A stretch of 64,000 nt of DNA, from contig OZ242169.1 in the NCBI GenBank assembly GCA_965205405.1, positions 2,480,091-2,544,090 of the forward strand, written 5' to 3'. Shown here in pieces: positions 27,962-51,189 of the stretch. The DNA is from Gammaproteobacteria bacterium (lineage in GTDB: Bacteria; Pseudomonadota; Gammaproteobacteria; Eutrophobiales; Eutrophobiaceae). The notes below the pieces were generated by a model. That model did not search any database. It had not been told where the DNA came from and saw only the letters and a program-made list of their open reading frames with translations. Made by a program: the position numbers and the translations under genes. Position 1 is the stretch's first letter; the number at the start of each line of letters is the position of its first letter.

Positions 27962-29535
27962 ATGTCGGACATACACAATGACAAGATCCTGATTCTGGAT
28001 TTCGGTTCGCAATATACCCAGCTCATCGCCCGGCGGGTACGCGAAGTAGGAGTCTACAACGAGATTCATCCCTATGACATGGATGAACAGGCTATCAGGC
28101 GCTTCAAGCCGAGTGCCGTCATATTATCCGGCGGTCCGGAATCGGTGGTTGACGATCACAGCCGGCGTGCGCCGGACCTCATATTCCGGCTGGGCGTTCC
28201 GCTGCTGGGTATCTGTTACGGTATGCAGACCATGGCGCAGCAACTGGGAGGGCAGGTCGCCGCTTCCCGTCAGCGCGAGTTCGGGTACGCCAGGGTCAGG
28301 GCCAGAGGGCATTCGCATTTGTTACGGGATATCCAGGATGATACCAACGCGGCAGGCCACGGATTACTGGATGTCTGGATGAGTCACGGTGACCGGGTCG
28401 ATGAATTACCCGAAGGATTTAAGGTCATCGCTTCATCAGATAACTCTCCTATTGCCGGTATGGCTGATGAGGCACGGCATTACTATGGCTTGCAGTTTCA
28501 CCCGGAAGTGACCCACACCCGTCAGGGCATGGCCATCCTGCGGCGTTTCGTCTGCGAGGTCGCAGGCTGTGATACGCTGTGGACAGCCGACAACATCATC
28601 ACGGACGCCATCGCTGACATACGCGCCAGGGTGGGCGCAGACGAGGTGTTGCTGGCCTTGTCCGGCGGCGTCGATTCCGCGGTAGCCGCAGCGTTGTTGC
28701 AGCGGGCCATTGGAGATCAATTGACCTGTATCTTCGTCGATACCGGCCTGTTGCGTCTCAATGAAGGCGATCAGGTTATGGAGACCTTTTCCAGGCACAT
28801 GGGTATCCGCGTTATCCGAGTCAACGCGGAACAACGCTATATGGAGAAACTAAAGGGAGTGGCCGACCCGGAAGATAAGCGCAAGATCATCGGCCGTGAG
28901 TTTATTGCCATCTTTGAAGAGGAAGCAAAAAACTCAAAAATGAAAAATGGTTGGCCCAGGGCACCATCTACCCGGACGTAATCGAGTCCGCCGGCGCCGG
29001 CACCGGCAAGGCCCATGTGATCAAGTCACACCATAACGTGGGGGGACTGCCGGAACTCATGAACCTGGAACTGCTCGAACCCCTGCGCGAGCTTTTCAAG
29101 GACGAAGTACGCAAACTGGGCGGACAACTGGGACTGCCGCCGGAAATAATCCAACGCCACCCGTTTCCGGGCCCGGGTCTGGGGGTGCGGATCCTCGGAG
29201 AGGTGAAAAAGGAATACGCGGATATCCTGCGCCAGGCCGATGATATTTTCATGCGCGCACTCATCCGGCATGACCTGTACCATAAAACCAGCCAGGCATT
29301 CACCGTGTTCCTGCCAGTCAAGTCCGTAGGCGTCAAGGGCGATGCCCGGCGCTATGACTACGTGGTAGCCCTGCGCGCCGTGGAAACCGTCGATTTCATG
29401 ACCGCCCGCTGGGCCCGCCTGCCCGGCGAATTCCTGCAGGAAGTCTCTGAGCGGATCATGAACGAGGTGGAGGGCGTATCCAGGGTGGTTTACGACATCT
29501 CCAGCAAGCCGCCGGCGACGATAGAGTGGGAGTAG
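27962..29535 (+). CDS. guaA: GMP synthase (glutamine-hydrolysing), interrupted by a -1 frameshift in an A6 tract (28927-28932)
   Basis: ORF 27962-28981 carries the GATase domain (GICYGMQ) and the ATP-PPase motif SGGVDS. ORF 28951-29535 carries the C-terminal dimerisation domain ([15 protein letters not shown] ... [10 protein letters not shown]). Adding one A restores [20 protein letters not shown]. Confidence 0.85.
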
Positions 29536-29715: not shown

Positions 29716-30897
29716 TCAAGCCAGGAACCACGGCAGCACGTCGAAACCCTTTAAGGAAAAACGTTCGTTACCGCCATGGACGAGCAATCCGCCACTGTTG
29801 GGATTAGTCGGAATGGAAGTCCACCACTGCAAGCCGAGAACCGCATCCGCCGGCACTGTCTCTCCGGACTTTACCTCCACCGGGAGGATGCGTTCGCCCA
29901 GGTCAATCAGGGTATCTATCTCGTGGCCGGTTGCATCTCGCCAGTAAAAGAGGGGGGGCTCACGGCGGCGGTTGGTAAAACTTTTTATGATCTCTGCTAT
30001 CACGTATGACTCAAAGATTGCGCCTCGGAGTGGGTGTCTGGCTAATATTTCGGCATCCGTTATGTCCAGCAGATAACAGGTCAAGCCACTGTCGAGAAGG
30101 TGCAGGCGCGGGCGTTTACGTAACCGTTTCCTGTAGTTTACATAGTGCGGGGGCAGCGTTATCGCAAGATAACCGACTTCCAGGGCATTCAACCAACGCC
30201 GGGCAGTTTGCTGTGTGATTCCCACGTCGCTTGCCATCCGGGTGAGGTTGAGTTCCTGGGCGGTATTTGCGGCGGCGAGCCTCACAAAGTTCTCAAAAGC
30301 GCGCGTGTCTGAAACTTCCAACACGGCGAGCAAATCGCGTTCGACATAGGTGCGAAAGTAATCAGCCAACCATTCACGAGCTGGAATCCCGGTGTCGTGG
30401 ATACGCGGATAAAAGCCATTGAACAGGGTTTGCCAGCGTTCCAGATCCGGCGCTGATTGTGAGACGGGCAATTGTGCAGGGTCAAAAAGTTCACGACCGG
30501 TTAATTCGGCTATTGAGAGTGGATAAAGGCGCAACAGGGCGGTGCGTCCTGCCAGGGTTTGTGACACTGATTCCATCAGCAGCAGGTTTTGCGAACCTGT
30601 GAGGATGAACCTGCCAGGGGCCGGATTATCATCAACCAACCCCTGTATGTATGAAAGCAGCTCGGGCGCGCGCTGAACTTCGTCCAGGATGATTTTGGAA
30701 CCGCCGGAGAGAAAACCGCGAGGGTCCTCAATGGCCCTTGAACGAACATCCGGCGCCTCGAGCGAAAAATATCGGTGCTTGGGGAACATGGCCCGTACCA
30801 GGGTTGTTTTACCGGATTGCCGGGGTCCCGTTAGCGTCACTACGGGATTTTGTTCAGCTGCGGCTCGCAGGGCTTTTGAGATATGGCGGGGAAACAT
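29716..30897 (-). CDS. AAA+ ATPase of the COG1373 type (AAA_14 N-terminal domain plus DUF4143-like C-terminal domain)
   Basis: Start at the Met at 30897 (MFPRHISKALRAAAEQNPVVTLTGPRQSGKTTL). P-loop present. C-terminal region of the DUF4143 type. Confidence 0.65.
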   Translation of the reverse strand: MFPRHISKALRAAAEQNPVVTLTGPRQSGKTTLVRAMFPKHRYFSLEAPDVRSRAIEDPRGFLSGGSKIILDEVQRAPELLSYIQGLVDDNPAPGRFILTGSQNLLLMESVSQTLAGRTALLRLYPLSIAELTGRELFDPAQLPVSQSAPDLERWQTLFNGFYPRIHDTGIPAREWLADYFRTYVERDLLAVLEVSDTRAFENFVRLAAANTAQELNLTRMASDVGITQQTARRWLNALEVGYLAITLPPHYVNYRKRLRKRPRLHLLDSGLTCYLLDITDAEILARHPLRGAIFESYVIAEIIKSFTNRRREPPLFYWRDATGHEIDTLIDLGERILPVEVKSGETVPADAVLGLQWWTSIPTNPNSGGLLVHGGNERFSLKGFDVLPWFLA

Positions 30898-31047
30898 GGT
30901 ATAAGGATAGCTTACAACCTGTATCCGTGTCAATCCAATGATTGTATCATGTAACTGACACGTAAAGCTCGCCGATACTGGGATCGCGGTACACCGGCAC
31001 TTATGAATACCTTGCAAATCAGGAATTAAAATCCTAAAATACAAGGT

Positions 31048-32217
31048 ATGCTAAAGCGTCAAATTACACAGAAACTTCAAACAACGATCGCGCAAGTGCC
31101 TGCGGTCGTATTGCTTGGCGCGCGTCAGGTCGGTAAGACGACGCTTGCAAAAACCATTGCTAAAAGCATCGATTCAATTTACCTCGATTTGGAAGCTCCC
31201 GAGGATCTGCTGAAACTCAGCGACCCCGCCAGTTTTTTAAGCGCTCATTCCGATAAACTGGTTATTCTGGACGAAATACAGCGAGCCCCGGAATTGTTCC
31301 CTGTGCTACGGGGTCTGATTGATAAAAACCGGGAGCAGGGTCTTAGAGCGGGTCAGTTCTTACTGCTTGGATCGGCTTCAATGGATTTAATGCGTCAGTC
31401 TTCGGAAAGCCTGGCTGGTCGGATTAGTTATATCGGGATGAGCGGCCTGAACCTTGCTGAGATAGATGGTAACCAACAGGATCGGCAGACCCTTTGGCTA
31501 CGGGGGGGTTTTCCCGACAGCTATCTGGCAACAGATGATGACTTGGCCATGGACTGGCTTGAAAATCTGGTTCGCACTTATCTTGAACGTGATGTCCCGC
31601 AAATGGGCTTCCGTGTTCCCGCAGCAAGGTTGCGCCGACTGTGGACGATGTTGGCTCATTTGCAGGGTGAAACCATTAACTATTCCAAGCTGGCTTCGAA
31701 TCTGGAAGTCGATGCGAAGACGGTCAGTCACTACATTGATATTCTGACGGACCTTTTGCTGGTCAGGCGCCTTGAGCCCTGGCATACCAACGTCAAAAAG
31801 CGATTAGTGAAATCACCCCGTTATTACGTTCGTGACAGCGGCATTCTGCACCGCTTGCTAGGTATCAACAGCTACGATGAGTTGCTGTCTAATCCGGTTT
31901 TGGGTAAGAGTTGGGAAGGCTTTGCGGTTGAAAATATTCTATCGGTCCTGCCGGGTCGCGCAGAAACCTACTTTTACCGAACAGCAGCCGGAGCAGAGGT
32001 TGATCTGGTTATCAGGATGACATCGTCGGAAATCTGGGCCATAGAGATCAAACATGGCGTTGCCCCCAAACTCGGCAAGCACTACAGCCAAACCTGCGAT
32101 GATGTTGGCGCAACGCATAAATACATCCTTTACGGTGGTGACGATGAGTTTCCTGTGGGTAATGATGTGAACATCATTTCTCTGTCAGGGCTTATGGAAA
32201 GACTTCATTCGGGCTGA
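31048..32217 (+). CDS. AAA+ ATPase of the COG1373 type (AAA_14 plus DUF4143-like), divergent paralog of the previous gene
   Basis: 389 aa with LLGARQVGKTTLAK and ILDEIQRAPELF. Same architecture as the divergent neighbour. Confidence 0.65.
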   Translation: MLKRQITQKLQTTIAQVPAVVLLGARQVGKTTLAKTIAKSIDSIYLDLEAPEDLLKLSDPASFLSAHSDKLVILDEIQRAPELFPVLRGLIDKNREQGLRAGQFLLLGSASMDLMRQSSESLAGRISYIGMSGLNLAEIDGNQQDRQTLWLRGGFPDSYLATDDDLAMDWLENLVRTYLERDVPQMGFRVPAARLRRLWTMLAHLQGETINYSKLASNLEVDAKTVSHYIDILTDLLLVRRLEPWHTNVKKRLVKSPRYYVRDSGILHRLLGINSYDELLSNPVLGKSWEGFAVENILSVLPGRAETYFYRTAAGAEVDLVIRMTSSEIWAIEIKHGVAPKLGKHYSQTCDDVGATHKYILYGGDDEFPVGNDVNIISLSGLMERLHSG

Positions 32218-32396: not shown

Positions 32397-32642
32397 ATGA
32401 ACACAACTGAAATAATGTGCCCAGTGCCGGGCGTTTTTTACCGCAGCCCTAGTCCCGAAGAGGATCCTTTTGTTGCTCCCGGCCAGACAGTTTCTGCCAA
32501 GGATGTAATAGGGCTAGTAGAGGTGATGAAGCAGTTTTTCCCGGTAGCAGCCGGGTGCGACGGCGAACTGAAAGAATTTCTCGTTGAGAACGGGGAAGAG
32601 GTTATGGCCGGGCAAGTGCTGGCCACATGTGAAGCTGTGTAA
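32397..32642 (+). CDS. Stand-alone biotinyl (BCCP-type) domain protein
   Basis: 81 aa, colinear with the AccB C-terminal domain (PVPGVFYRSPSPEEDPFVAPGQTVSAKDVIGLVEVMKQF...). The biotin-Lys lies in the VMKQ motif. Confidence 0.75.
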   Translation: MNTTEIMCPVPGVFYRSPSPEEDPFVAPGQTVSAKDVIGLVEVMKQFFPVAAGCDGELKEFLVENGEEVMAGQVLATCEAV

Positions 32643-32722
32643 ATTCGTCCAAAAATATTTGACGAAAAAGCGAGTCTACTCATGAAGTTACGCGATCTAT
32701 TGACTCAGTTAGCCGGACACTA

Positions 32723-34133
32723 GTGATACCAGGTTGTAGTTCAATAATGATTAGAAAGCTATTAGTAGCCAACCGGGGAGAGATTGCCGTCAGGGTCGTC
32801 CGTGCTACTCGTGAAATGGGAATTTACTCGATACAGGTATACAGTGAGGCTGATAGCGATTCACTCGCCGTCAGGATGGCCGATGAAGCAGTCGCGATTG
32901 GACCAGCCAGGGCCTCTGAGTCTTACCTGAATATTGAGTCCATTTTACATGCGGCAAAGGCGACTGAAGCTGACGCCATTCATCCGGGTTATGGTTTCCT
33001 GTCGGAGAACCCTGACTTTGCCGATGCAGTTGAGTCAGCGGGTTTGCGCTTTGTCGGCCCTACCGCTAATACCATTCGATTGATGGGAGATAAGGTCTCG
33101 GCGCGTACCGTAGCAGTTGCAGCGGGAGTGCCAGTGGTGCCAGGTAGTTATGGGCGTATTGACGATATGGATGACGCTTGTCGGCTCGCCGATGACATTG
33201 GCTTTCCCGTGATGATCAAGGCCGCAGCGGGTGGAGGAGGTCGAGGAATTCGCATTGTTTCTGATCCCGATACATTTGCCAGTGAAGCCTCTCAAGCGAG
33301 AGCTGAAGCAAAAGCTGCTTTTGGTGACGGCGGACTTTATGTCGAGAAGGTCATAGAAAGCGCTCGACACATTGAAGTGCAGATATTGGGAGATGGTGAG
33401 AACGTAGTCCATTGTTATGAGCGGGAGTGCTCTTTACAACGTCGGCGGCAAAAGGTTTGGGAAGAGGCGCCTGCTACGGTATTGAGCGAAGCAATTCGTT
33501 CGGAATTGTGTGCGGCAGTTGTCCGTTTGGCGAAGGCTGTGAAGTATTCTGGTGCGGGAACAGTTGAATTTCTCTACAACGACGATACGGGCGAGTTCTA
33601 CTTTATCGAGATGAATACTCGGATTCAGGTAGAGCACCCTATAACTGAAGCGATTACGGGAGTTGATTTGGTGAGGGAGATGTTGTGGATTGCCTCAGGG
33701 CAAAAGCTGTCTCTTCGGCAGGATCAAATTCAGGTCAGGGGCCACGCGATCGAAGTCAGGTTGAACGCCGAGGATCCCGGCAACAATTTTTTCCCCGTCG
33801 CCTGGAACAGTAGTTGACTTGGAGGTTCCCACAGGACCTGGCGTGCGCTTCGACAGCATGCTATTTGAAGGCTATACCGTTTCTCCGCTGTATGACTCGC
33901 TAATTGGCAAGCTTATTGTTTGGGACCAGGATCGAGAATCGGCAATCAGCCGCCTAAAGAGAGCTTTGGGTGAGCTTCAAATCGGGGGGATATCTACGAC
34001 CAGGGCGCTTTTCCAGGCGCTTTCTGAGAGTGATGATCTGCTCAGGGGACGAATAAACACTCAGTGGCTGGAATCCTGGCTACTGGAAACTACTGATATT
34101 AAGGCTCCAACAAATAACGATATCCATGTATGA
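32723..34133 (+). CDS. Biotin carboxylase (AccC-like), interrupted by a +1 frameshift in a T6C4 tract near 33788-33800
   Basis: ORF 32723-33817 has the ATP-grasp biotin carboxylase pattern (MIRKLLVANRGEIAVRVVRA ... EMNTRIQVEHPITE). ORF 33819-34133 has the C-terminal domain (PSPGTVVDLEVPTGPGVRFDS ... in the alternative frame). Removing one base from TTTTTTCCCC gives the continuous NFFPSPG. Confidence 0.8.
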
Positions 34134-35002
34134 AAACGCGCTATGCCCACGGGGGCGATGAACACATATTTGTAGAACTTGATGAGGAGATGTCGTTAGA
34201 AGCTTTCTTCAAAGGTCTATCCATGGCAAATAAGGTCAGAGAGCTGAATATTGATGGCGTTACCGAAGTGTGTCCGGCGAACGCCTCTCTACAGGTTAAG
34301 TTTGATCCGGACGTGATCTCTCCTCACGAGATGCTGTCGAAGCTGAAGGAAATTGAGTATTCCGCTGAGCATTCGGACACTCTTGATACTCGCATTATCG
34401 AAATACCTGTGTATTACCAGGATCCCTGGACGCATGAATGCCTGATGAAGTTTCGTGATCGCCACCAGGATCCTAATTGTACGGACCTTGAGTATGCTGC
34501 GCGAATAAATGGTTACGCAACAGTCGAGGAGCTAATCGAAGCGCACTCCGGTTCCCCCTGGTTTGTTTCGATGGTAGGATTTGTCGCTGGTTTACCTTGG
34601 TTGTATCAAATGGTGGAGCGTTCGAAGCAGATCGAGGTGCCCAAGTATCTTCGCCCGCGCACCGACACGCCCAAGCAAACTATTGGCTATGGAGGATGCT
34701 TTAGCGCACTTTATTCAGTGAGGGGAGCCGGTGGATATCAGATGTTTGGTATTACGCCGATGCCAATCTATGATCCCAGGCAAGAAGTCAAGCACTTGCA
34801 GGACTTTATGATTCTTGCCAAGCCGGGTGACATCGTGAAGTTTAGATCTATTCAGCGTGAGGAGTATGACCGGATCCTGGCGCAAGTGGAAGCGCGCGAA
34901 TATGACCCCAGGATACGACCGGTAAAGTTCTCGCTTGACGAGTTCAATAAGGATATAGACGGCTGCAACAAGAAATTCCTGGAGGTTCTTAATGACGATT
35001 AA
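34130..35002 (+). CDS. KipI / PxpB-family protein (allophanate hydrolase subunit 1-like, 5-oxoprolinase subunit B family)
   Basis: 290 aa. Family pattern at the N-terminus (RYAHGGDEHIFVELDEEMSLEA ... NIDGVTEVCPANASLQVKFDP). Confidence 0.75.
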   Translation: MKTRYAHGGDEHIFVELDEEMSLEAFFKGLSMANKVRELNIDGVTEVCPANASLQVKFDPDVISPHEMLSKLKEIEYSAEHSDTLDTRIIEIPVYYQDPWTHECLMKFRDRHQDPNCTDLEYAARINGYATVEELIEAHSGSPWFVSMVGFVAGLPWLYQMVERSKQIEVPKYLRPRTDTPKQTIGYGGCFSALYSVRGAGGYQMFGITPMPIYDPRQEVKHLQDFMILAKPGDIVKFRSIQREEYDRILAQVEAREYDPRIRPVKFSLDEFNKDIDGCNKKFLEVLNDD

Positions 35003-35981
35003 TGTTAAAGCGCCTGGCTTGGCGACCACAGTCCAAGATCTGGGCCGGCCCGGACACTACCACATTGGAATACCGATATCTGGTGGAATGGACAGGTTTG
35101 CACTGCGCGTCGCCAACATGTTAGTGGGTAACGACGAGGGCGCAGCGGTGCTGGAATGTGCATTTTTAGGGCCTGAGCTGGAGTTCACAGCTGATGCGCT
35201 TGTTGCTGTAACTGGCGCAGAGTTGCCTCCAAAGATTGATGGTGAACCACAACAGACCTGGACGGCACTTGAAATGAAGGCTGGTCAGGTGCTCTCATTC
35301 GATTTCCTGAAAGGGGGCGCTAGAGCGTATATCGCAACATCTGGTGGCATTGATGTTCCTATGGTGCTGGGAAGTCGCTCAACATACCTTCTGGGATCAT
35401 TGGGTGGAGTAGAGGGGCGCACGCTGCAGGCGGGTGATACCCTCCCCGTAGGCCAGCCCCGGCAACAGGTTGAGCCTGGTCGCTCACTTCCATCGCATAT
35501 GAGACCGGAGCCGCCATCAGAGGTTGAACTCAGAATGTTGCCGGATCTCTACTGGCACCGGATTACCGAGGCCTCACAACAAGCCTTTTTGGATGATACC
35601 TGGAAGGTTGCTCCTGAAGCGGACAGGACAGGCTTCCGTTTCCGAGGGGGGCGGCAGCTGGAATTTGTGCCTCGAGAACAGCCATTTGGAGCGGGCTCCG
35701 ATCCCTCAAATATTGCCGATGCTTGTTATCCATACGGGTCAATTCAGGTTCCGGGCGGAACGGAGCCCATAGTATTGCACCGTGATGCTGTAACTGGCGG
35801 TGGTTATTTTATGCTTGGGACAGTGATATCGGCCGATATGGATATGATAGGCCAGTTACAACCAAACACTAAAGCTAGATTTGTCGCAGTTGATATGGAG
35901 ACTGCACTGGCCGCGCGGAGGGAGAGGCGGTTCGCACTCGATGCTGTTCGTGAGGAACTTACCGTTCAGGTCAACTTATGA
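34992..35981 (+). CDS. KipA / PxpC-family protein (allophanate hydrolase subunit 2-like, biotin-dependent carboxyltransferase-like family)
   Basis: 329 aa. Family pattern (VQDLGRPGHYHIGIPISGGMD). Overlaps the previous gene by 11 nt. Confidence 0.75.
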   Translation: MTINVKAPGLATTVQDLGRPGHYHIGIPISGGMDRFALRVANMLVGNDEGAAVLECAFLGPELEFTADALVAVTGAELPPKIDGEPQQTWTALEMKAGQVLSFDFLKGGARAYIATSGGIDVPMVLGSRSTYLLGSLGGVEGRTLQAGDTLPVGQPRQQVEPGRSLPSHMRPEPPSEVELRMLPDLYWHRITEASQQAFLDDTWKVAPEADRTGFRFRGGRQLEFVPREQPFGAGSDPSNIADACYPYGSIQVPGGTEPIVLHRDAVTGGGYFMLGTVISADMDMIGQLQPNTKARFVAVDMETALAARRERRFALDAVREELTVQVNL

Positions 35982-35991
35982 GGAGCACGCT

Positions 35992-36762
35992 ATGAAAAGT
36001 CGGGCGATGGATATCAACTGTGACATGGGCGAAAGTTATGGCAGCTGGGTGATGGGCAATGATGAGGCCCTTATGTCTCGTATCACCACGGCTAACGCCG
36101 CCTGTGGATTCCATGCAGGCGATCCTGTTACGATGCTAAAGACCGTCAGGTTGGCAAAACAGAACGGTGTTCAGATAGGAGCTCACCCGGGATTACCTGA
36201 TTTGCTGGGTTTTGGTCGTCGGCCAATGCCTCTGACGCCTGAAGAAGCCTATACCTATGTGTTGTACCAAACCGGAGCGCTGCAGGCCACCCTCAAAGCC
36301 AATGATATGACTTTGCACCATATCAAACCTCATGGCGCCTTCTACTCAATCCTGAAAACAGAACATGATTTGGCAGAGGCTGTGGCACAAGCAATATCGG
36401 AATTGTGTGAGGTTCCGATGCTCTACTGGCCTGCAGCACCCACCGACGCAGCCCTGCCTGCCGCAGCGAAAAAACGTGCTATCCGGGTAGTGGGTGAAAT
36501 CTATCCGGATCTTTCGTATGCGGCTGATGGAGCTCTGATTATTCAGCGTGAAATGCATGGGGCTGACCTTGATTTTGTTGCCGGCCAGGTCAGACGTTTC
36601 ATTGAGTCTTCGGTTGTAGAAGCGGTAGACGGCTCTCTCATTGAGCTTGAAGCTGACAGTATCTGTGTCCACGGTGATGGCGCCAATGCCGCGGAAGTGG
36701 CTGACACTATACGGTCTGTGCTCACCGAAAGCGGTTGCGAAATTGCACCGGTAATGGAATAA
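35992..36762 (+). CDS. LamB/YcsF-family protein (PxpA, 5-oxoprolinase subunit A family)
   Basis: Start at the ATG at 35992 (MKSRAMDINCDMGESYGSW ... ACGFHAGDP), the canonical LamB/YcsF N-terminus. The longer ORF in the track is an upstream read-through. Confidence 0.8.
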   Translation: MKSRAMDINCDMGESYGSWVMGNDEALMSRITTANAACGFHAGDPVTMLKTVRLAKQNGVQIGAHPGLPDLLGFGRRPMPLTPEEAYTYVLYQTGALQATLKANDMTLHHIKPHGAFYSILKTEHDLAEAVAQAISELCEVPMLYWPAAPTDAALPAAAKKRAIRVVGEIYPDLSYAADGALIIQREMHGADLDFVAGQVRRFIESSVVEAVDGSLIELEADSICVHGDGANAAEVADTIRSVLTESGCEIAPVME

Positions 36763-39799: not shown

Positions 39800-40379
39800 T
39801 TGTTCTTATTTGAACGTTAGAGTATATAATCTCAGTATAATCACCGATTCATCTCATTGCTATATCCGCGCTACGACTCACTATATGCTCAATATTATTC
39901 AGATAAACGCAGTCGAACAGCAAGTATGGGGCAGGCCGGATAAGTTGGCGAGGTCAGGCATGGGGCTGCCCGGTCAGGTTATGGCGCAGGAGGTACGGCA
40001 TGGGGAGACAGTTCTGCCCGCACCACCGCTCTGCCCATGGTGGCCGCAGGTATCCTGGGGGAGGTCATTGCGCGGCAATTCCGGGACAGCATAGTAACGT
40101 GTATCCTTACTCTTTTAGGTAGTATTACCAATATTATATTTTATCCCTACTACTCAAAAGAATACAAAACTACTAATCTAAGTGGTTTTACGGAGCTTCT
40201 TATCTCCTATCCTTTAATAGAGTCACCTGCAAGCGGCCAGTTGCAAACTCGGTTTCTGTGCCAGGGATGACCCTCGGGTCATTAAGACAGCCGCAAAACC
40301 CATTTTGTAGGAACGGCCGATGCAACTTAAGATTTGAATCAGCAAAAGCTCTTCATGAACTATAATATCAACGAGTAAT

Positions 40380-43130
40380 ATGGTTACATTGAAGAATGAA
40401 ATTGACCTTGATGGTCTCTATCAGATTTCAACCGATCTGAACACCACTCCTTTTACCAACAGTAAGTACCACCCGCCAAGTCAGAAGGTCCATCTGATAG
40501 AGCGGGTGGCCCTTAACCAGATTCTCAAAGAAATACAAAGCAGGAAGTTGATTGTTTTACAGGCGCCCGCCGGTTACGGTAAGAGTACCTTATTATCGCA
40601 GTGGCACACGAAACTGATTTCGGATAATTTCAGGGTAGGCTGGTTGTCTCTGGATGATGATGACAATAATACCCTCACTTTATTGAGTTATTTACTGGGT
40701 ATTATTTCATCCATGGGAGCCCCGTCCGATCCGGAAGAAATTACCAGTGGTAAAACTATCCATGAACTGTCAACTCGTGACCTGTTTGTCCTGCTGATTC
40801 ATGAAATTGAAAAATTTAATGAATCGGTTTTCCTCATTCTGGATAATTTTGAGATGCTGGATAAAGAGGTCGTTAATGCAGTAATCAGGCCGTTATTACA
40901 ATTTACACCTGATCATTTCCATTTAATCATCGCATCTCGATTTCAGCCGGACCTGGAGCTGTCACGTTTACGTACACAGGGGCTGCTCCACCAGATTAAA
41001 GCAACTGATTTGCGATTTAGCCTGTACGAAATCGAGGAATTTTTTCAGGGTAAATTATCAAAATACGAAGAAAGGACTATTGCGGAACGAACCCAGTGCT
41101 GGCCTGTCGCTGTTCAGTTGGCGCGGTTCTGGCGTGATAGTGACGGAGGTGGCATTCTGAAAAAATTTTCCGGCGTTCCCGAAGAAATCGCCGAGTATTT
41201 ATCTGAGCAGGTACTGTTACAGCTACCTGAGCCGGTGCAGGAATTTTTATTGGAGACGTCTGTACTGAACGTTCTGACTGAAGTGGATATAAAAGGAATA
41301 TTTATTGAACGGGATTATTGGTCAATGCTGGGTGATTTGATCTCCCTTGAGCCTTTTTTATATCTCCATGACACTGACCCCAAGAGTTATCACTTGAATC
41401 CGATTTTCCGTGATTATTTACGTATGGAATTCAATGAAAGGAGCCCGGAAAAAAAACAGGCCGTCCATCATTCAGCTGCTATGTGGTTTGCGGCAAATAA
41501 TCAACTCTCGACGGCTGTCCGCCACGCAAAAGAGTCCCATGATAAGGAACTGGCCGGTCGAATCGTACAGGATGCGGGCGGATTGAGTATATGGATCAGT
41601 CAAGGGCTGTTACTTATAACTACCGTGCACCGTCTTCTTGATGAGAAGGTAATTGAAGATTTTCCCAGGTTGAAGTTGTTACGATCATTGATATTGCTGA
41701 AAGAGGGAAAGTTAATTGAAGCCAGACGTTTATATGAACAGGTCAGGAAGGAGAGCAACCATTTTTCAACGGATAAAAAAAGCCAGGATATCAGTGCACT
41801 CAAATTAGATGCCCTGGTTGTTGACTCAACTCTGCTGGTTAACGAATGCAGGCTTGCCACGGCTGATTATGTTTCTGATTATGAAGCGGTAGTTTCGGAT
41901 ATGGCAACTAAAGATGAACTTTTACATGGTAATCTCATAACTCTACTGTGTCTGTCACATCATCAGCGGGGCGAGTTTGCGAAAGGTTTGGATTATGCGG
42001 ATAGAGCTATTGCCGTCTATGGAAGCAATGGCATAGTTCATGGGCAAATATATAATTATTTACATAAGGGAGTGATTCAGTTCGCCCAGGGTAATTCAAG
42101 GAAAACGCTTCATTGTTATAAACAGGCCCTTTCGATTGCCCGTACATATTACGGTACCGATAAAAGCAAGATTGCGGTTACTTTCCCATTGATAGCAGAA
42201 GTGAATTATGAATTGAACAACCTGGATACGGCCGGTTCGCACTTACACAACATTATTAAAAAATTACATGCAACCGAAGGTTGGTTTGATATTTATGCGG
42301 CGGGTTATATCACTACAGCACAATTAATCCTGAATGATGCCGGTCTGGATGCGGCAATGGAGTTTCTGGATAGCGTGGAAAGTGAGATTGAAGCATGCGG
42401 CATAGTTGGGCTGGTAAAGATAATCCTGGCTACACGAATAAGCCTGTTATCCCGTCATGGATTATTCAGTGAAGCTGAATACATTCTTAGATACTCAAAT
42501 CTGACAATTGACGCTTATATCAGGCCCGACCCTGATGTAACGACATGGCGAGAGCGGGAAGCCGTTATCAAGGCAATCGCTGAATTATCTATTCCACGCG
42601 GTAAAAATCACAAACTATTTCAGGATCTATTGCAGATATCCAATAACTTGCTGGCTACCATGCATATTCGCAGTTTTATTCATATTGGCATACTCACTGC
42701 GCTGGCTGGCATGTCATTGGGCGAGAAAGAACAAACATGGAAATTATTGTTGCAGGTTATGGATAAATCCCTCCATTCGGGATTTATCCGGTTTTTTATC
42801 GATAGAGGAGACCCGGCAAAACAAATGCTTGAAATGTTTGAAAAAGAATGCGGCCCTGTAATATCCGGGCGGACAGCAGAGCATTGTCATGACATTATTG
42901 AGCAGTTTGACATCTCCAGGCAGGAAAAACAGAATTTTTCATTGACAAAGCGCGAAGCCGAGTTGCTCGTGGAACTGAAAAGCGGGAAACCGGATAAACT
43001 TATTGCCAGATCGCTCAGAGTCAGCCCTAATACAGTCAGATATCATTTAAAAAAATTATACAGGAAACTCGGTGCTGTCAATCGAACTGAAGCAGTTCAT
43101 ATCGCGCGGGAATCTTCCCTGATTGAATAG
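40380..43130 (+). CDS. Large ATP-binding LuxR-family (LAL / MalT-like) transcriptional regulator
   Basis: 916 aa. N-terminal P-loop NTPase (VLQAPAGYGKSTLLSQW). Long helical (TPR-like) middle region. C-terminal LuxR/GerE HTH (LTKREAELLVELKSGKPDKLIARSLRVSPNTVRYHLKKLYRKLG). Confidence 0.8.
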   Translation: MVTLKNEIDLDGLYQISTDLNTTPFTNSKYHPPSQKVHLIERVALNQILKEIQSRKLIVLQAPAGYGKSTLLSQWHTKLISDNFRVGWLSLDDDDNNTLTLLSYLLGIISSMGAPSDPEEITSGKTIHELSTRDLFVLLIHEIEKFNESVFLILDNFEMLDKEVVNAVIRPLLQFTPDHFHLIIASRFQPDLELSRLRTQGLLHQIKATDLRFSLYEIEEFFQGKLSKYEERTIAERTQCWPVAVQLARFWRDSDGGGILKKFSGVPEEIAEYLSEQVLLQLPEPVQEFLLETSVLNVLTEVDIKGIFIERDYWSMLGDLISLEPFLYLHDTDPKSYHLNPIFRDYLRMEFNERSPEKKQAVHHSAAMWFAANNQLSTAVRHAKESHDKELAGRIVQDAGGLSIWISQGLLLITTVHRLLDEKVIEDFPRLKLLRSLILLKEGKLIEARRLYEQVRKESNHFSTDKKSQDISALKLDALVVDSTLLVNECRLATADYVSDYEAVVSDMATKDELLHGNLITLLCLSHHQRGEFAKGLDYADRAIAVYGSNGIVHGQIYNYLHKGVIQFAQGNSRKTLHCYKQALSIARTYYGTDKSKIAVTFPLIAEVNYELNNLDTAGSHLHNIIKKLHATEGWFDIYAAGYITTAQLILNDAGLDAAMEFLDSVESEIEACGIVGLVKIILATRISLLSRHGLFSEAEYILRYSNLTIDAYIRPDPDVTTWREREAVIKAIAELSIPRGKNHKLFQDLLQISNNLLATMHIRSFIHIGILTALAGMSLGEKEQTWKLLLQVMDKSLHSGFIRFFIDRGDPAKQMLEMFEKECGPVISGRTAEHCHDIIEQFDISRQEKQNFSLTKREAELLVELKSGKPDKLIARSLRVSPNTVRYHLKKLYRKLGAVNRTEAVHIARESSLIE

Positions 43131-43310
43131 CGTCATGCTTTTCGTCCGGCGCCGATTCCCCCGGGACCGATGTCTGTTTCGCCTTGCCCCCGGAGGTTTA
43201 TATACCTACTGATTCAGGTAGTCTTTTCTTAAAATAGAAACTCACCCCCTACTCAAGAAACTTCCAAACTACTTTTTGCAGTAATTCAACAGGGGTCGTT
43301 CATCCCGTAT

Positions 43311-43330
43311 CCTTTTATCTAGATAAAAGG
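43311..43330. promoter_or_regulatory. Perfect 20-bp palindrome CCTTTTATCTAGATAAAAGG about 70 bp upstream of the hydantoinase-like gene; candidate operator
   Basis: Exact dyad symmetry seen in the sequence, in the LuxR-regulator / hydantoinase-like intergenic region. Confidence 0.45.
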
Positions 43331-43401
43331 TTTCTTTATGAAGCCGCACGGTTACCTGAGAAGAAGAACCGGAAGATGCGATATTGAAGCGGAGTAAATA
43401 A

Positions 43402-44964
43402 ATGCGACTTGGTGTGGATGTCGGAGGTACAAATACTGATGCCGTCTTGATGGATGGCGCACTGGTACAAAGCTGGCATAAAAGTTTCACTACGGAAGAC
43501 ATCAGCACGGGGATATTTTCGGCCATCAGGAGTGTTCTGACAAAAGCCGATATATCCGCCGATAGCATCGAAGGTGTGATGATCGGGACAACTCATTTTG
43601 CCAACGCAATCATAGCGCGGGAGGGATTGGAAAATGTCGGCATCATCAGGATTGCGTTGCCTGCTACTCGTGGTTTACCGCCACTGACTGATTGGCCCGA
43701 TGATTTGAAAGTGCTTGTAGGCGGCCATGCCTATCTGATCCGGGGAGGCTATCAATTTGATGGGCGCTTGAATAGCAAGCTTGACGAAGCCGGGTTGTGT
43801 GATGCCGTTCATGACATTAAAAAGCGAAGGTTGAGATCAGTGGCAATATCTTCACTATTCTCTCCTGTTAACAGTGATATGGAGTTTCGTGCTGAGGCAA
43901 TAATAAAAAATGAGTTGCCTGACGTATCAGTCACTTTGTCTCATCGAATCGGCAGACTTGGTCTGCTTGAACGTGAAAACGCAACCATCATGAATGCCAG
44001 CCTGACGGGTCTCTCCCGGAAAGTGGTCAATTCAATTCGAACAGCCTTGCTTGATCTGAATATTACCGCCCCATTTTACATAAGCCAGAACGACGGCACT
44101 TTAATGGACGCGGAGGCTGTGGAGAAATATCCGGTACTAACCATCTTATCCGGCCCGACTAACAGTATGCGCGGCGCGGCATATTTGTCGGGCCAGAAAA
44201 ATGCAGTAGTAGCGGATATCGGTGGGACCACCACTGAAATAGGCATGCTGGTAAATGGATTCCCCAGGGAATCTTCGTTAACCGTCGATGTGGGCAAGGT
44301 ACGCACCAACTTTCGTATGCCGGATATTCTTGTACTCGGGTTGGGCGGCGGCAGCCTGGTCAGAAACACCATGCCTGTTAGGGTAGGTCCGGATTCTGTC
44401 GGTTATCGGATAACCAGAGACGCCCTTGTCTTCGGTGGTAATGAATTGACTGCAACTGATATAGCAGTCGCAGCCGGCCATACATTAATCGGTAATCCCG
44501 AATATGTTTCAGGACTGGAAAAAGGGTTTGTCAATGCAGCCATAAAGGAAATAAGACTTGTGGTCGAAACCGGTATTGACAGGATCAAAACATCTCCCGA
44601 ACCAATTCCACTGGTATTGGTAGGAGGAGGTTCTGTTTTGGCGCCGCGCAAGTTATCAGGAGTATCTGAAATTATTATTCCTGAGCATGCGCCCGTTGCC
44701 AATGCGGTTGGAGCGTCAATTGCGCAAATTGGTGGAGAGATAGAGCACGTCTATCTTTACTCACAGCTTGGCCGCGAAGAAGCCTTATCACAAGCGCGTT
44801 CAGGTGCGATTCAAAATGCAATAAGCATGGGAGCGGACCCTTCAACTACAAACGTTGTGGACTTGGAAGAAATACCGCTTGCCTATGTGCCCGGAGGCGC
44901 TGTCAAGGTACGCGCGAAAGCGACCGGGATACTTAATCTGGTAAATCCTGATAGACCAGTATAA
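43402..44964 (+). CDS. Hydantoinase-A/oxoprolinase-family (ASKHA-fold) protein, HyuA-like, 520 aa
   Basis: N-terminal MRLGVDVGGTNTDAVLMDG, typical of the Hydant_A_N domain. Size and Gly-rich motifs (GGGS, GPTNS) fit the short HyuA-like proteins that pair with DUF917. Confidence 0.65.
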   Translation: MRLGVDVGGTNTDAVLMDGALVQSWHKSFTTEDISTGIFSAIRSVLTKADISADSIEGVMIGTTHFANAIIAREGLENVGIIRIALPATRGLPPLTDWPDDLKVLVGGHAYLIRGGYQFDGRLNSKLDEAGLCDAVHDIKKRRLRSVAISSLFSPVNSDMEFRAEAIIKNELPDVSVTLSHRIGRLGLLERENATIMNASLTGLSRKVVNSIRTALLDLNITAPFYISQNDGTLMDAEAVEKYPVLTILSGPTNSMRGAAYLSGQKNAVVADIGGTTTEIGMLVNGFPRESSLTVDVGKVRTNFRMPDILVLGLGGGSLVRNTMPVRVGPDSVGYRITRDALVFGGNELTATDIAVAAGHTLIGNPEYVSGLEKGFVNAAIKEIRLVVETGIDRIKTSPEPIPLVLVGGGSVLAPRKLSGVSEIIIPEHAPVANAVGASIAQIGGEIEHVYLYSQLGREEALSQARSGAIQNAISMGADPSTTNVVDLEEIPLAYVPGGAVKVRAKATGILNLVNPDRPV

Positions 44965-44982
44965 ACACTTAGGAGATGTGAA

Positions 44983-47094
44983 ATGAAGATGACTAAGATA
45001 ATTCAACCTTTAAGCACTCTGTTGATTTCTTCAGTTCTGTTTACTGCTTCACTCGGGACTCAGTATTTATTTGCGGCTGATGGCGTTGATGTAACTGCCC
45101 TGGAAGAAATAGTGGTAATAGCACGTAAACGGCAAGAAAACCTGCAGGAGGTCCCGGAAGCTATAACGGCCTTCAGCGAACGCAGGCTGGAACTGGCCAA
45201 AGTAGAGAATTTACGTGATTTCGTAGACCTGACGCCGAACCTGATGATACGTGAAACTTTCCGCTCAAATGAGAGTTTTCTTACCCTGCGCGGTCTGTCA
45301 AGTGCGCAGGGAGGGTTACCACCGGTGAGTTTTATTGTGGATGGTGTGCAGTTGGGTTCCAATGATTTTATAAACCAGGATATTCTGGACGTGGAACGGA
45401 TTGAGATACTGAGAGGCCCACAAGGCGCGCTTTATGGACAAGGCGCGATAGCAGGCGCTATTGTAGTAACGACAAAAGCGCCGAGTAACGACCCAGAATT
45501 CCATATAAAGGGCTCCTATGGCAAGGGTGACAGCTATCGGGTGGCAGTTTCCGGGTCTGCGCCGATTGTCGATGACCAACTGTTTTTGCGTATCTCGGGC
45601 TATTACCGTGACAGCGATGGCCTCATCGATAACATACGCGGTGAAGATATAGATTTCAGCGAGGAAGGTTCCATCCGAGCGCGTCTGCAATATGAAGGAG
45701 ACAACCTGCGCGCCAGTCTGCGCGGGTCCTATACGGAAGGTGATGGGAATTGTTGTATGCAGGACCGCTTGCCCAGAGACGCCAACCGACAGATTTCGGC
45801 GGGCGTGGATATTGACGATGTGGATAACCCTGGACCAAGTAGTGATCTTTTAGGCACCAGTGGTACCAGTTTTCGTGATGTATCACTGAAGCTGGATTAC
45901 GATCTGGCCAATTTCACCTTTACCTCCATAACGGGTTACGCGGAAGTGCGCCAGTCTGTTTTTGGGGATGCCGATTTTGCGCCGGTACCATTTGTCAAAC
46001 AGGATCTGGGTTTCAATACTGACGTATTCAATCAGGAAATACGCCTGGCATCGAGTGATGACAGCCGTTTACAATGGATTGTTGGCGGGTTTTACCAGGA
46101 CCGCCAGGAAAGACAACCGGTTTTTGTCGGGGCGGTGACACCGGGGGCCGGCCTGCCTGTTCCGGATGTCATTTTAGATCTTGATAACGAAATCAACAGT
46201 GAATCATGGGCAATCTTTGGACAGGTAAGCTATTACCTTACCGATAAACTGGAGGGTTTGTTTGCCTTACGCTATGACGAAGATGATCAGGATACGGTTG
46301 ATAAAAATAATCCACCCACGTTCAAGGAAGCCTCATTTGATGAATTGCAACCGAAAGCGCAATTATCCTACCGCTGGACCGATGACGTACTGACTTTCTT
46401 CAGTTATTCAACCGGGTTCAGAACAGGGGGGTTTACGCAAAACAGCAAGTTTGGTAACGAAACGACGGATAATTTCGAGCTTGGCTTCAAGGGAACCTTC
46501 CTGGATAGACGTCTGATCGTAAATGCCTCTGTATTTCACGTTGATTATGCCAATCAACAATTATCGTTTGTTGTGTTCGACAATAATATAGCCCGGCGAG
46601 GGGTAGTGAATATACCTGCAACTGATATTGATGGTCTGGAACTGGAAATTCAGGCATTACCGTTTGATGGCCTGAATGTATCTATTGGTGTCGGAATTTC
46701 CGATTCGGTCATAAAAGAGATCACCTCGTTGGATGCTGCGCTCGGTGACGTTTCTGGCGCATCTGGTAATCGGTCACCTTTTGTTCCATCTTTCACCTTT
46801 AATGGGTCCCTGACATATACGTATCCGATATATGACCAAATTGAACTGGTGCTTCACACCGACTACCGGCGCAGGGGTAATTACTACAGCGACCTCAATA
46901 ATGAGATTCAAACTGCTACCAGGGATTTCATCGATGGAAGAATAGCGCTGGAGGCCCGAAATTGGTCTTTGGCGTTATGGGGCAGGAATTTGACCGACAG
47001 CCGGCATGCCACGCGCGTATCAGCGACGGGCTCTGCGTTGCGCAACCAGAACCAGCCACGGTCTTACGGGGTTGAACTCAGTTACCGTTTTTGA
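44983..47094 (+). CDS. TonB-dependent receptor
   Basis: 703 aa. Signal peptide, plug (EEIVVIARKRQENLQEVPEAITA), C-terminal ...ELSYRF. Confidence 0.85.
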   Translation: MKMTKIIQPLSTLLISSVLFTASLGTQYLFAADGVDVTALEEIVVIARKRQENLQEVPEAITAFSERRLELAKVENLRDFVDLTPNLMIRETFRSNESFLTLRGLSSAQGGLPPVSFIVDGVQLGSNDFINQDILDVERIEILRGPQGALYGQGAIAGAIVVTTKAPSNDPEFHIKGSYGKGDSYRVAVSGSAPIVDDQLFLRISGYYRDSDGLIDNIRGEDIDFSEEGSIRARLQYEGDNLRASLRGSYTEGDGNCCMQDRLPRDANRQISAGVDIDDVDNPGPSSDLLGTSGTSFRDVSLKLDYDLANFTFTSITGYAEVRQSVFGDADFAPVPFVKQDLGFNTDVFNQEIRLASSDDSRLQWIVGGFYQDRQERQPVFVGAVTPGAGLPVPDVILDLDNEINSESWAIFGQVSYYLTDKLEGLFALRYDEDDQDTVDKNNPPTFKEASFDELQPKAQLSYRWTDDVLTFFSYSTGFRTGGFTQNSKFGNETTDNFELGFKGTFLDRRLIVNASVFHVDYANQQLSFVVFDNNIARRGVVNIPATDIDGLELEIQALPFDGLNVSIGVGISDSVIKEITSLDAALGDVSGASGNRSPFVPSFTFNGSLTYTYPIYDQIELVLHTDYRRRGNYYSDLNNEIQTATRDFIDGRIALEARNWSLALWGRNLTDSRHATRVSATGSALRNQNQPRSYGVELSYRF

Positions 47095-47116
47095 TATGAC
47101 TCTTCCGTTGTTTTGT

Positions 47117-47148
47117 GGGCTGATCCTCCTGGATCAGCTTTCTTTTTA
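47117..47148 (+). terminator. Rho-independent terminator after the TonB-dependent receptor gene
   Basis: GCTGATCC-TCCT-GGATCAGC is a perfect 8-bp stem, followed by TTTCTTTTTAT. Confidence 0.7.
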
Positions 47149-47266
47149 TGTTTTATTTATGAAAGTTATTACGCTTTGCGATCCGGTTATCGCCCGTTTG
47201 GCAATCGGTAATTTGAGTTACCCTATTATTCGGATGCCAATTTAATAAATACAGAACAATAGTCAA

Positions 47267-48562
47267 ATGTCCCGTTTGCGAACATTGACACAGGACTACA
47301 ACAGGGTACCGGTTCCTGATGAAAAGACTGTGAGCGCCTGGCACATCGCCTTGATTAAAATAGGTATTGTCATTGCTCTTCCCGCTTTTTTTACTGGCGC
47401 TGAAATCGGGGTAGCTATGGGCCTGGTGGATGCTTGTCTGGTCATAATCGCAGCTGCGCTTATCCTGGCGTTGCTTGCTGCGTTGACCGGTACAGTAGGA
47501 GCGAGTTCACGTTTGTCAACATCAATGATTCTACAATTTTCCTTCGGAATACATGGCGCAAAATTCGTTAATTTCATACTTGCCACTACTTTGCTGGGTT
47601 GGTTTGGAGTGACAACCGCCTTATTCGGGCATACATTAAATGATCTTGTCATTTCCACTTTAGATATCCGGTTAGTACCGACGTTATATATGTTTCTGGG
47701 CGGATTATTGATGATTGTGACGACAGTTTTCGGTTTCAAAGCCCTGCAAAAACTCTCCAATTTTGTGGTTCCGTTATTACTCATCGGAATTGTTGTCGTG
47801 TCTTATATATCCACTCAACAAGGTGAATTCTATCCACTGATGTTAACAACCGGTGATGGCAGTTTATCTATCGGCCTTGGTATCTCAGCATTGGTAGGAG
47901 GAATGGTAGTAGGGGTCACTATTTTTCCTGATCTGACCCGTTATGCCCGTAGTTCTGTTCACGGGCGAGCCGCAGCAGGATTAAGTTATGGATTAGGGGT
48001 TCCTTTTGTACTCATCACGGTTGCTATCCCGAGTATTGTCACAGGCGAAAAGGATCTATTGCTGATCATGCTGTCTTTGGGCTTGGGGATTACCTCATTA
48101 TTGGTGCTTATCATCACTGCGTGGACAACCAATGCAGGCAATTTATATTCGTCTTCTCTGGTTTTGGCAACGATATTCCAGGCAGTAGAAAAATGGAAAA
48201 TCTGTATTGCGGCGGGACTGATCGGAACTGTCTTTGCCGTATCAGGTATCACTGAATATTTTCTATCTTTCCTGATCCTGCTCGGGGTCTGTATTCCGCC
48301 CATAGTAGGGATTTATTTGGCCGATTTTTATTTCATCAGGAATAAACAGTATGATTTATTGAAACTGAAACAGGTCCCGGCTATCAATATTGAGGCATTT
48401 ATCGCCTGGTTACTTGGTATCAGCGTTGCGTCAATGACCTCAAGGGATATTATTTCTCTCACGACAATTCCTTCCTGCGACGCAGTTTTGACAGCTTTTT
48501 CTGTCTATATCCTGCAAAAAAAATTTTCTTTCGGGAGCCCGTGGCGCCTTTACAGGAAGTAA
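47267..48562 (+). CDS. NCS1-family nucleobase-type permease, CodB (cytosine permease)-like
   Basis: 431 aa, about 12 TM segments. Colinear resemblance to CodB (SFGIHGAKF ... LLGWFGVTTALFG). Confidence 0.75.
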   Translation: MSRLRTLTQDYNRVPVPDEKTVSAWHIALIKIGIVIALPAFFTGAEIGVAMGLVDACLVIIAAALILALLAALTGTVGASSRLSTSMILQFSFGIHGAKFVNFILATTLLGWFGVTTALFGHTLNDLVISTLDIRLVPTLYMFLGGLLMIVTTVFGFKALQKLSNFVVPLLLIGIVVVSYISTQQGEFYPLMLTTGDGSLSIGLGISALVGGMVVGVTIFPDLTRYARSSVHGRAAAGLSYGLGVPFVLITVAIPSIVTGEKDLLLIMLSLGLGITSLLVLIITAWTTNAGNLYSSSLVLATIFQAVEKWKICIAAGLIGTVFAVSGITEYFLSFLILLGVCIPPIVGIYLADFYFIRNKQYDLLKLKQVPAINIEAFIAWLLGISVASMTSRDIISLTTIPSCDAVLTAFSVYILQKKFSFGSPWRLYRK

Positions 48563-48592
48563 TATCTGGTGTGATTTATTTATAACAAGTAT

Positions 48593-49681: not shown

Positions 49682-49711
49682 ACCGGTTCTTTCATTTATT
49701 CTTTACCCGTT

Positions 49712-50806: not shown

Positions 50807-50808
50807 CG

Positions 50809-50893
50809 CTTCCGTTGGAAATTTGGGGTCAGAGTAAAAATATGGTCAACTTGGTAGGTGTTGCCGGTTTATTCGTGAGTATTTTTACTCTGA
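50809..50893. repeat. Family-A hairpin repeat copy 3, between the convergent PQQ-dehydrogenase and MoaD-like genes
   Basis: Arms AAATTTGGGGTCAGAGTAAAAATAT / GTATTTTTACTCTGACCCCAAATAT around a 35-bp unique spacer. Followed by the family-B half-site AAATCTGTCCCC at 50906-50917. Confidence 0.8.
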
Positions 50894-50925
50894 CCCCAAA
50901 TATCCAAATCTGTCCCCGCCCGGCA

Positions 50926-51189
50926 CTATCCCCCGCCGATAGCGGGGACGAAAAAGACCTCGTTGTTTTCTTCCAGGCGTTGCAGGGGCCCCAGGTGGCT
51001 GATTTGTCCGTTGACTGCAACGGCAATACCGGGTTTTAACCTGTCACCGTCCATGAGCGCATCTTTTAATCCGGGATAGCTCTCATCCAGCGCGACGACC
51101 AGCCTCCTGACGGTGCGGCCTTCCATCTCGACGGTTTCCTTGCCGCCGGTATATGTCTGCATGGCTTTTGGGATCCAGACCGTCGGCAT
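50926..51189 (-). CDS. MoaD/ThiS-family ubiquitin-like sulfur-carrier-type protein ending in Gly-Gly
   Basis: About 87 aa from MPTVWIPKAMQTYTGG ... VNGQ ... EVFFVPAIGGG. The beta-grasp MoaD pattern and C-terminal GG match. Its start overlaps the stop of the Mo-hydroxylase large subunit by about 8 nt. Confidence 0.6.
   Translation of the reverse strand: MPTVWIPKAMQTYTGGKETVEMEGRTVRRLVVALDESYPGLKDALMDGDRLKPGIAVAVNGQISHLGPLQRLEENNEVFFVPAIGGG

Follow-up and report, generated by a model that had tools for sequence, protein, structure and literature searches.

We analysed a 64,000-nucleotide stretch of the genome of a Gammaproteobacteria bacterium (GenBank assembly GCA_965205405.1, contig OZ242169.1, positions 2,480,091 to 2,544,090 of the forward strand; hereafter the window, in whose own numbering positions are given), in which five consecutive genes encode a stand-alone biotin carboxyl carrier protein (BCCP), a biotin carboxylase (BC) interrupted by a frameshift, a KipI-like protein, a KipA-like protein and a hydrolase of the LamB/YcsF (PxpA) family. 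On balance we favour the reading that this operon encodes a four-subunit biotin-dependent enzyme of the urea carboxylase type together with a LamB hydrolase, and that the split of the BC gene is most likely an assembly error. To judge by its sequence, the KipI/KipA pair is a split carboxyltransferase of the urea carboxylase type and not of the PxpB/PxpC type, and it is this recognition, with the catalytic lysine evidently kept, that is new here.

Profile searches with Pfam and NCBIfam models found the expected domains in five consecutive open reading frames (ORFs) of the + strand at 32397-36762, in the places where the original prediction, made from the letters alone, had put the five genes. 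The BCCP gene (32397-32642) encodes an 81-aa stand-alone biotinyl domain (PF00364, E=4e-14; NF005457, 111.8 bits with a cut-off of 87), the biotinyl-lysine of which lies in the motif EVMKQ; E-x-M-K is invariant across 12 cluster-linked homologues. The BC gene (32747-34133) starts at ATG 32747, with an alternative GTG at 32723, and lies in two frames, an N-part at 32747-33817 (PF00289 and PF02786) and a C-part (PF02785) that runs in the +1 frame to 34133; the nucleotide and bicarbonate motifs are present. The KipI-like gene (34130-35002, 290 aa; PF02682, E=4e-41) corresponds to carboxyltransferase subdomains C/D and the KipA-like gene (34992-35981, 329 aa; PF02626, E=3e-89) to subdomains A/B. 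The LamB gene (35992-36762, 256 aa; PF03746, E=1e-82) probably starts at ATG 35992 rather than at TTG 35881, because its product then has the 256 aa called in relatives. The BC stop codon overlaps the KipI start in an ATGA, the KipI gene shares its last 11 nt with the KipA gene, and 10 nt lie between KipA and LamB; therefore the five genes are probably translationally coupled. A promoter and terminator scan gave nothing informative.

Together, the four proteins other than LamB tile the urea carboxylase model TIGR02712, with BC at model positions 2-449, KipA at 448-767, KipI at 803-1080 (101.9 bits) and BCCP at 1147-1199. KipI scored under the PxpB equivalog TIGR00370 (82.7 bits, cut-off 145.55) and has 290 aa against ~220-240 aa, and KipA, which passed TIGR00724 (266 bits, cut-off 230), scored under the PxpC equivalog NF045499 (212.6 bits, cut-off 500). 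Alignments by phmmer and by MAFFT both placed Lys172 of KipI (VPKYLRPRT) opposite Lys1605 of K. lactis KlUA, which is the likely essential general base of carboxyltransfer and the replacement of which (K1605A) cripples the enzyme (PMC5770610). At the Lys172 position, Arg is found in PH0987, B. subtilis KipI, MSMEG_0436 and the BC-linked homologues of Firmicutes, which also lack an adjacent three-residue insertion. Furthermore, KipA carries an insertion of ~9 residues, PREQPFGAGSDPSNIADACY (PREQPFGAGSDPSN..D..Y), which matches ARSDGGEAGLHPSNAHDYVY of KlUC and which E. coli YbgK, MSMEG_0435 and the homologues from Firmicutes lack. There appear, from these signatures, to be two kinds of BC-linked cluster, a urea-carboxylase-like kind and a PxpBC-like kind, the latter found in Firmicutes and corresponding to the type of the S. 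aureus operon; the urea-carboxylase-like kind was seen in the window, in Alpha- and Gammaproteobacteria and in one Actinomycetospora.

These comparisons bear directly on the alternative that the cluster is a PxpABC 5-oxoprolinase whose ATP coupling runs through a dedicated BC and BCCP, acting on 5-oxoproline in metabolite repair or in the use of pyroglutamate. It draws on the LamB protein, which passes the PxpA subfamily model NF003814 (287.5 bits, cut-off 226) and the orthologue of which is named PxpA by the Prokaryotic Genome Annotation Pipeline (PGAP), on the S. aureus genes pxpB-pxpC-accB-accC-pxpA forming one operon, and on E. coli YbgK being the best solved relative of KipA by sequence. 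(The best solved relative of LamB is PH0986, PDB 1V6T, E=7e-68.) Against it stand the scores of KipI and KipA, both under the PxpB/PxpC equivalog cut-offs, and the combination of Lys for Arg with the KipA insertion, which is foreign to proteins of the PxpB/PxpC type and to the Firmicute BC-linked ones. Moreover, PxpABC paralogues are substrate-specific: in P. putida PP_4575-7 is needed for the use of 5-oxoproline and PP_2920-2 for that of butyrolactam, and PP_2920-2 does not rescue growth on 5-oxoproline (bioRxiv 10.1101/2021.12.09.472016). We thus consider a 5-oxoprolinase unlikely, and the view of the original prediction that the cluster is a variant of the PxpABC system gave way to that of a split urea-carboxylase-type pair.

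The frame of the BC gene is broken, as had been predicted, by a +1 shift after which the C-terminal domain continues in the other frame. The cause is one extra C in the T6C4 homopolymer run TTTTTTCCCC (33787-33796, + strand): frame A ends ...NAEDPGNNFFPVAWNSS followed by a stop codon, which lies 21 nt past the run, and frame B continues ...PSPGTVVDLEVPTGPGVRFDS. Removal of one C gave a 461-aa BC with an end-to-end match to NF009471 (731.7 bits, cut-off 686; model positions 5-455 of 467) and 98% identity to an intact 472-aa metagenome protein (P0001); in the 20-member 90% cluster of the latter, the 15 members listed are all single proteins of 436-472 aa. The nearest sequence relatives of the window are gammaproteobacterial metagenome sequences, many of them from long-read assemblies. 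We compared it with nine syntenic loci (L001 and L086-L093) of 97-98% nucleotide identity, which come from at least six independent metagenome assemblies and include short-read NODE/scaffold contigs as well as long-read contigs; lipA, xseA, guaB, guaA, a variable segment, the five genes and a TonB-dependent receptor make up the neighbourhood common to all. Each of the nine carries T6C3 and an intact BC gene. In the 108 codons past the break there were no non-synonymous and 2-3 synonymous differences from L087, L088 and L090, and one non-synonymous and five synonymous differences from L001. The other four operon genes are intact, and their proteins are 96-99% identical to those of the relatives.

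A second break was found in guaA (27962-29535), the GMP synthase gene, 4.9 kb upstream of the operon, which is split into two ORFs with GATase/PP-loop (27962-28981) and GMP_synt_C (28951-29535) domains; the cause is the loss of one base, private to the window, beside an A6 run at about 28925-28931. In all three relatives covering the site the gene is intact (524 aa), and once one base is put back the protein matches NF000848 over its full length. That the window has two private frameshifts associated with homopolymers, and one of these in a housekeeping gene, suggests consensus errors left in the assembly. Since the BC frameshift is private, lies in a homopolymer, is followed by apparently constrained codons and is accompanied by this second private frameshift in guaA, we read it as most probably a one-base homopolymer artefact of long-read assembly, and otherwise as no more than a private mutation of very recent date.

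The competing explanation is that the frameshift is genuine, that BC is inactivated in this organism and that the cluster is decaying. The extra C is, after all, present in the sequence as given, with the N-part stopping 21 nt after the run, and other private changes lie nearby, so that the window may come from a lineage of its own that could have acquired a private mutation: in comparison with all relatives it misses a T at 32369, in the leader directly before the BCCP gene, and it has a 9-bp in-frame deletion at the BC 3' end (34127-34130; ...DIHV before the stop here versus ...DIQEVDA in the relatives). Nevertheless, the extra C is a singleton among 10 closely related sequences, there is no non-synonymous excess past the break, the other four genes are intact and the companion break in guaA gives a pattern typical of long-read consensus errors. 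Decay is in our view quite unlikely; the original prediction expected it if the frameshift were fixed in the population, whereas the gene is intact in nine of nine relatives.

With regard to the quality of the assembly, other adjacent same-strand ORF pairs in the window were considered as frameshift candidates, and the Pfam-matched ones turned out to be separate CoxL/S/M-type subunits or unrelated genes; for the ORFs 61610-62113, 62056-62613, 61161-61622, 8708-8992 and 50767-51036 there was no Pfam match. In a 3.46x long-read contig from a 78%-identical group (L003, 12261-14059) the KipA and LamB genes fall apart into several ORFs, but contigs of higher coverage have them intact, a direct example of coverage-dependent indel errors in such data.

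In the enzyme of urea carboxylase type that we favour, BC would use ATP and bicarbonate to carboxylate the biotin carried by the 81-aa BCCP, and the formation of carboxybiotin from ATP and bicarbonate is the established chemistry of the BC and BCCP families. The KipA/KipI heterodimer would then move the carboxyl group to a nitrogen of a small amide or lactam, with Lys172 of KipI acting as the general base by analogy with urea carboxylase. That a KipA/KipI pair can present the biotin of a carrier for such a transfer is known from MSMEG_0435-0436, described below. Finally, LamB, a protein of metal-hydrolase fold that is invariably linked to the other four, would hydrolyse the activated N-carboxy-lactam and the carbamate product would lose CO2. 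Overall, the reaction would run lactam + ATP + H2O -> amino acid + ADP + Pi, i.e. the logic of urea amidolyase, carboxylation followed by hydrolysis, applied to another amide. The original prediction had proposed an ATP- and bicarbonate-dependent carboxylase or decarboxylase; the ATP-grasp BC points to a carboxylating reaction that would depend on ATP and bicarbonate, and given its presence the decarboxylase half of the proposal is unlikely. It had also called the cluster biochemically unassigned, and in the searchable literature we likewise found no reaction assigned to this cluster type, a biotin-dependent 5-oxoprolinase or lactamase included.

As the substrate, a lactam or cyclic amide is favoured by analogy, because of PxpABC, its P. 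putida paralogues, the lamA/lamB genes of A. nidulans and the hydantoinase/oxoprolinase genes found near such clusters. The name prokaryotic 5-oxoprolinase was given to pxpABC (Niehaus et al. 2017, cited in bioRxiv 10.1101/2021.12.09.472016), and lamA/lamB are described as lactam catabolism genes in PMC8016842, with reference to Katz & Hynes 1989.

The same features could be taken to indicate a multi-subunit urea carboxylase or guanidine carboxylase, with the four proteins tiling TIGR02712 and with the Lys1605 equivalent and the KipA insertion present. Yet the equivalog score of that model was reached by no protein, the best single score being 534 bits against a cut-off of 1303.85. Neither an allophanate hydrolase (amidase) nor a carboxyguanidine deiminase was found in or next to the operon of the window and its relatives, LamB being linked to it instead, and there was no Rfam match, whether to a guanidine riboswitch or to anything else, in the whole window at the gathering threshold or in the leader region at E<=1. 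Such an enzyme is accordingly improbable.

Tentatively, the proposal can be carried further, as a possibility to which we give distinctly less than even weight. The five proteins may form a kind of ATP-dependent amide hydrolase not reconstituted before, which might be called a 'lactam amidolyase' and in which the lactam or cyclic amide would be activated by biotin-mediated N-carboxylation and not by phosphorylation, LamB would open the ring and, by extension, the 'biotin-independent' PxpBC and KipI/KipA pairs may borrow carboxy-BCCP from housekeeping carboxylases. The idea of borrowing comes from the MSMEG_0435-0436 structure, which hints at it: by cryo-electron microscopy of a mycobacterial carboxylase, these KipA/KipI proteins were found to keep the BCCP domain's biotin placed suitably for carboxyl transfer (PMC13012033). 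If true, borrowed carboxy-BCCP would make N-carboxylation through biotin the general way of activation in this enzyme family and would revise the mechanism assumed for the bacterial 5-oxoprolinase, as the current literature still assumes phosphorylation for PxpBC (PMC13274462).

The linkage of the five genes, which the original prediction had called conserved, indeed recurs. BC, BCCP, KipI, KipA and LamB genes are linked, in varying orders, in Alpha- and Gammaproteobacteria, Actinobacteria and Firmicutes. The order BCCP-BC-KipI-KipA-LamB was found in the window and in the 78%-identical group, where a gene for a major facilitator superfamily transporter lies in front; LamB-BCCP-BC-KipI-KipA was found in Agrobacterium, Rhizobium, Arboricoccus, Pelagibius, Bradyrhizobium, Shinella and Acidiphilium, and still other orders in Alkalihalobacillus, Atopococcus and Actinomycetospora. 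The window holds all features that define the group, namely five adjacent same-strand genes, a BCCP of NF005457 type, a BC of NF009471 type, the lysine in 'PKY' of KipI and the insertion 'PFGAGSDPSN' in KipA, and these were also found in L002, L006-L008, L027, L063, L094 and L095. In annotation the group appears as PxpA, 'acetyl-CoA carboxylase', BC, carboxyltransferase domain protein and biotin-dependent carboxyltransferase. In the alphaproteobacterial clusters (L006-L008, L027, L094 and L095) LamB stands at the 5' end, and KipI and KipA are 63-69% identical to those of the window. KipA homologues with 60-80% identity occur in ~67 plasmid records, both regions inspected having the five-gene arrangement, and the orthologues on annotated plasmids have a KipA identity of ~68-70%. 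In addition, a 773-aa protein from the Joint Genome Institute (P0109) joins the BC domains and a KipI-type PF02682 domain in one chain, being either a natural fusion or a read-through over the ATGA overlap.

Contexts in high-GC loci were taken from existing annotation, as naive ORF calling was too noisy. Recurring neighbours of the clusters include a divergent LysR regulator, and HyuA/HyuB-type hydantoinase/oxoprolinase genes and solute-binding transporters are frequent. Immediately downstream of the cluster, two genomes have genes for biotin supply, namely BioY in Pelagibius litoralis (L094, 11249-11839) and bioB on an Acidiphilium multivorum plasmid (L096, 8294-9274).

Could BC and BCCP be ordinary subunits of acetyl-CoA carboxylase that merely adjoin a PxpABC-like cluster? 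The NCBIfam names and the PGAP names in annotated genomes, which read 'acetyl-CoA carboxylase', suggest it. However, the BCCP is an 81-aa minimal domain without the N-terminal part of AccB and scores under the AccB model TIGR00531 (65.2 bits, cut-off 115.2), and the repaired BC is just under the housekeeping accC model TIGR00514 (618.8 versus 626.5). The Kip/LamB linkage recurs with shuffled order in distant lineages, and the overlap of start and stop codons indicates translational coupling. A scan of genome contigs with a BC alignment also bears on this point. It mostly returned housekeeping accC, because the conserved peptides are common to all biotin carboxylases, and useful loci were only L006-L008, L026, L027, L063 and L076; none of the ~70 housekeeping accC loci that it retrieved has a Kip or LamB gene beside it. 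Because the BCCP lacks the AccB N-terminal part, the BC scores under the accC equivalog and the housekeeping accC loci are free of Kip and LamB, the 'acetyl-CoA carboxylase' names are legacy labels and no evidence of a role in fatty-acid synthesis, and a chance neighbourhood of this kind is very improbable. That the break in BC is a programmed +1 ribosomal frameshift regulating BC synthesis can practically be dismissed, since in spite of the slippery-looking T6C4 run and the seamless join of the two parts the shift site is not conserved, the relatives all encoding BC in a single frame with T6C3.

Several points weigh against the reading of the operon as a urea-carboxylase-type enzyme with a LamB hydrolase and a spuriously split BC gene. 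The LamB proteins of the alphaproteobacterial clusters are just 37-40% identical to that of the window, and the LamB partner may thus not be strictly orthologous across clusters, coming from another LamB subfamily or having been exchanged. The carboxyl transfer, the LamB hydrolysis and the substrate class are inferred, and beside the operon of the window no adjacent regulator or dedicated transporter hints at the substrate. As for the frameshift, the 64 kb show no more than two broken genes, less than 5 kb apart, and a genuine, strain-private frameshift keeps a small probability. A. nidulans LamA (UniProt P38095) is probably a fused urea-carboxylase-like biotin protein, and if so lamA/lamB would be the fused eukaryotic counterpart, a system of two genes in which a single protein has all the domains of the carboxylase. 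To our knowledge, the A. nidulans lactam enzyme has never been reconstituted.

On both sides of the operon the window differs from its relatives. The segment at 29716-32217, between guaA and the operon, is strain-variable: where the window has two divergent AAA_14/DUF4143 ATPase genes, the relatives (L088, 7795-9483; L089, 2551-3952) show toxin-antitoxin genes, a gene of the AIM24 family or what is left of truncated DUF4143 genes. A 100-bp piece with 90% identity to part of guaA (window 28952-29051) also occurs in four relatives and has no duplicate in the window. Downstream, ~10 kb of the window (39800-49700) are absent from syntenic relatives, in which the TonB-dependent receptor is followed directly by a GSDH gene. 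This segment contains genes for a MalT/LuxR STAND regulator (40380-43130), a hydantoinase-A-like protein (43402-44964), a second TonB-dependent receptor (44983-47094), an NCS1 permease of the cytosine/purine/allantoin type (47267-48562) and an S-Me-THD/DUF917-like protein (48593-49681), and from this predicted content it looks like an island for the utilisation of N-heterocycles or hydantoins near the operon. Further on, genes for molybdenum hydroxylase subunits of the CoxL/CoxS/CoxM type (PF02738/PF20256, Fer2_2 and FAD_binding_5) lie at 51197-54839 and, beyond them, one for a second FAD-binding subunit at 60742-61626.

The cluster itself was already known, and the window adds nothing to it beyond hundreds of similar loci. 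The type is common and annotated in many genomes, where the labels 'acetyl-CoA carboxylase' and '5-oxoprolinase' are routinely, and wrongly, given to it. Reading it as urea-carboxylase-like leads to a concrete hypothesis, the hydrolysis of a lactam or amide activated by carboxylation, and with the lysine and the KipA insertion as signatures in the sequence it can be told from true PxpBC. The family is a worthwhile orphan biotin enzyme. For the window the outcome is more modest: the BC gene is probably no pseudogene, and the assembly seems to contain homopolymer indel errors, in guaA too.

Among known systems, P. aeruginosa PA0492-0496, named for comparison in the original prediction, probably belongs to this cluster type, to judge by its annotation; within the searchable literature it appears solely in transcriptomic tables. 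In strain PAO1, PA0492-PA0495 are annotated as a conserved hypothetical protein, a biotin-requiring enzyme, an acyl-CoA carboxylase subunit and a hypothetical protein, and all four responded together to the overproduction of ParB (PMC5521831). The S. aureus operon pxpB-pxpC-accB-accC-pxpA (PMC11315280) unites the same five families; in the Firmicute loci of our alignment (L026 and L076, S. aureus not being among them), in contrast to the window, KipI and KipA are of the PxpB/PxpC type, with ~240 aa, Arg and no insertion, and the BCCP has a long AccB-like N-terminal part. PxpABC (E. coli YbgJKL, 5DUD; B. subtilis) and P. putida PP_2920-2 share the families LamB/PxpA, KipI/PxpB and KipA/PxpC with the window and open lactams with ATP, but these systems come without genes for BC and BCCP, PxpB carries Arg in place of the Lys of this KipI, and PxpC lacks the insertion. 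MSMEG_0435-0436 resembles the window's pair in that a KipA/KipI heterodimer docks a biotinylated BCCP domain; unlike that pair, it comes without a dedicated BC and BCCP, borrows AccA3, appears to inhibit the host carboxylase and is PxpB/PxpC-like at the signature positions. In A. nidulans, according to PMC8016842, lamA/lamB serve the use of 2-pyrrolidinone, so that there too a LamB-family protein is paired genetically with a partner in lactam catabolism. A further known system is urea carboxylase/amidolyase (K. lactis KlUC, 3VA7, and KlUA, 5I8I; TIGR02712), with which the operon shares the domain set of BC, carboxyltransferase A/B (KipA), carboxyltransferase C/D (KipI) and BCCP, the equivalent of Lys1605 and the insertion in the A/B part. 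In contrast to that enzyme, a single polypeptide of about 1200 aa, the domains here are four separate polypeptides in the order BCCP-BC-C/D-A/B, and the hydrolase is LamB instead of an allophanate hydrolase of the amidase signature family, while the logic of carboxylating first and hydrolysing afterwards would, as we propose, be the same.

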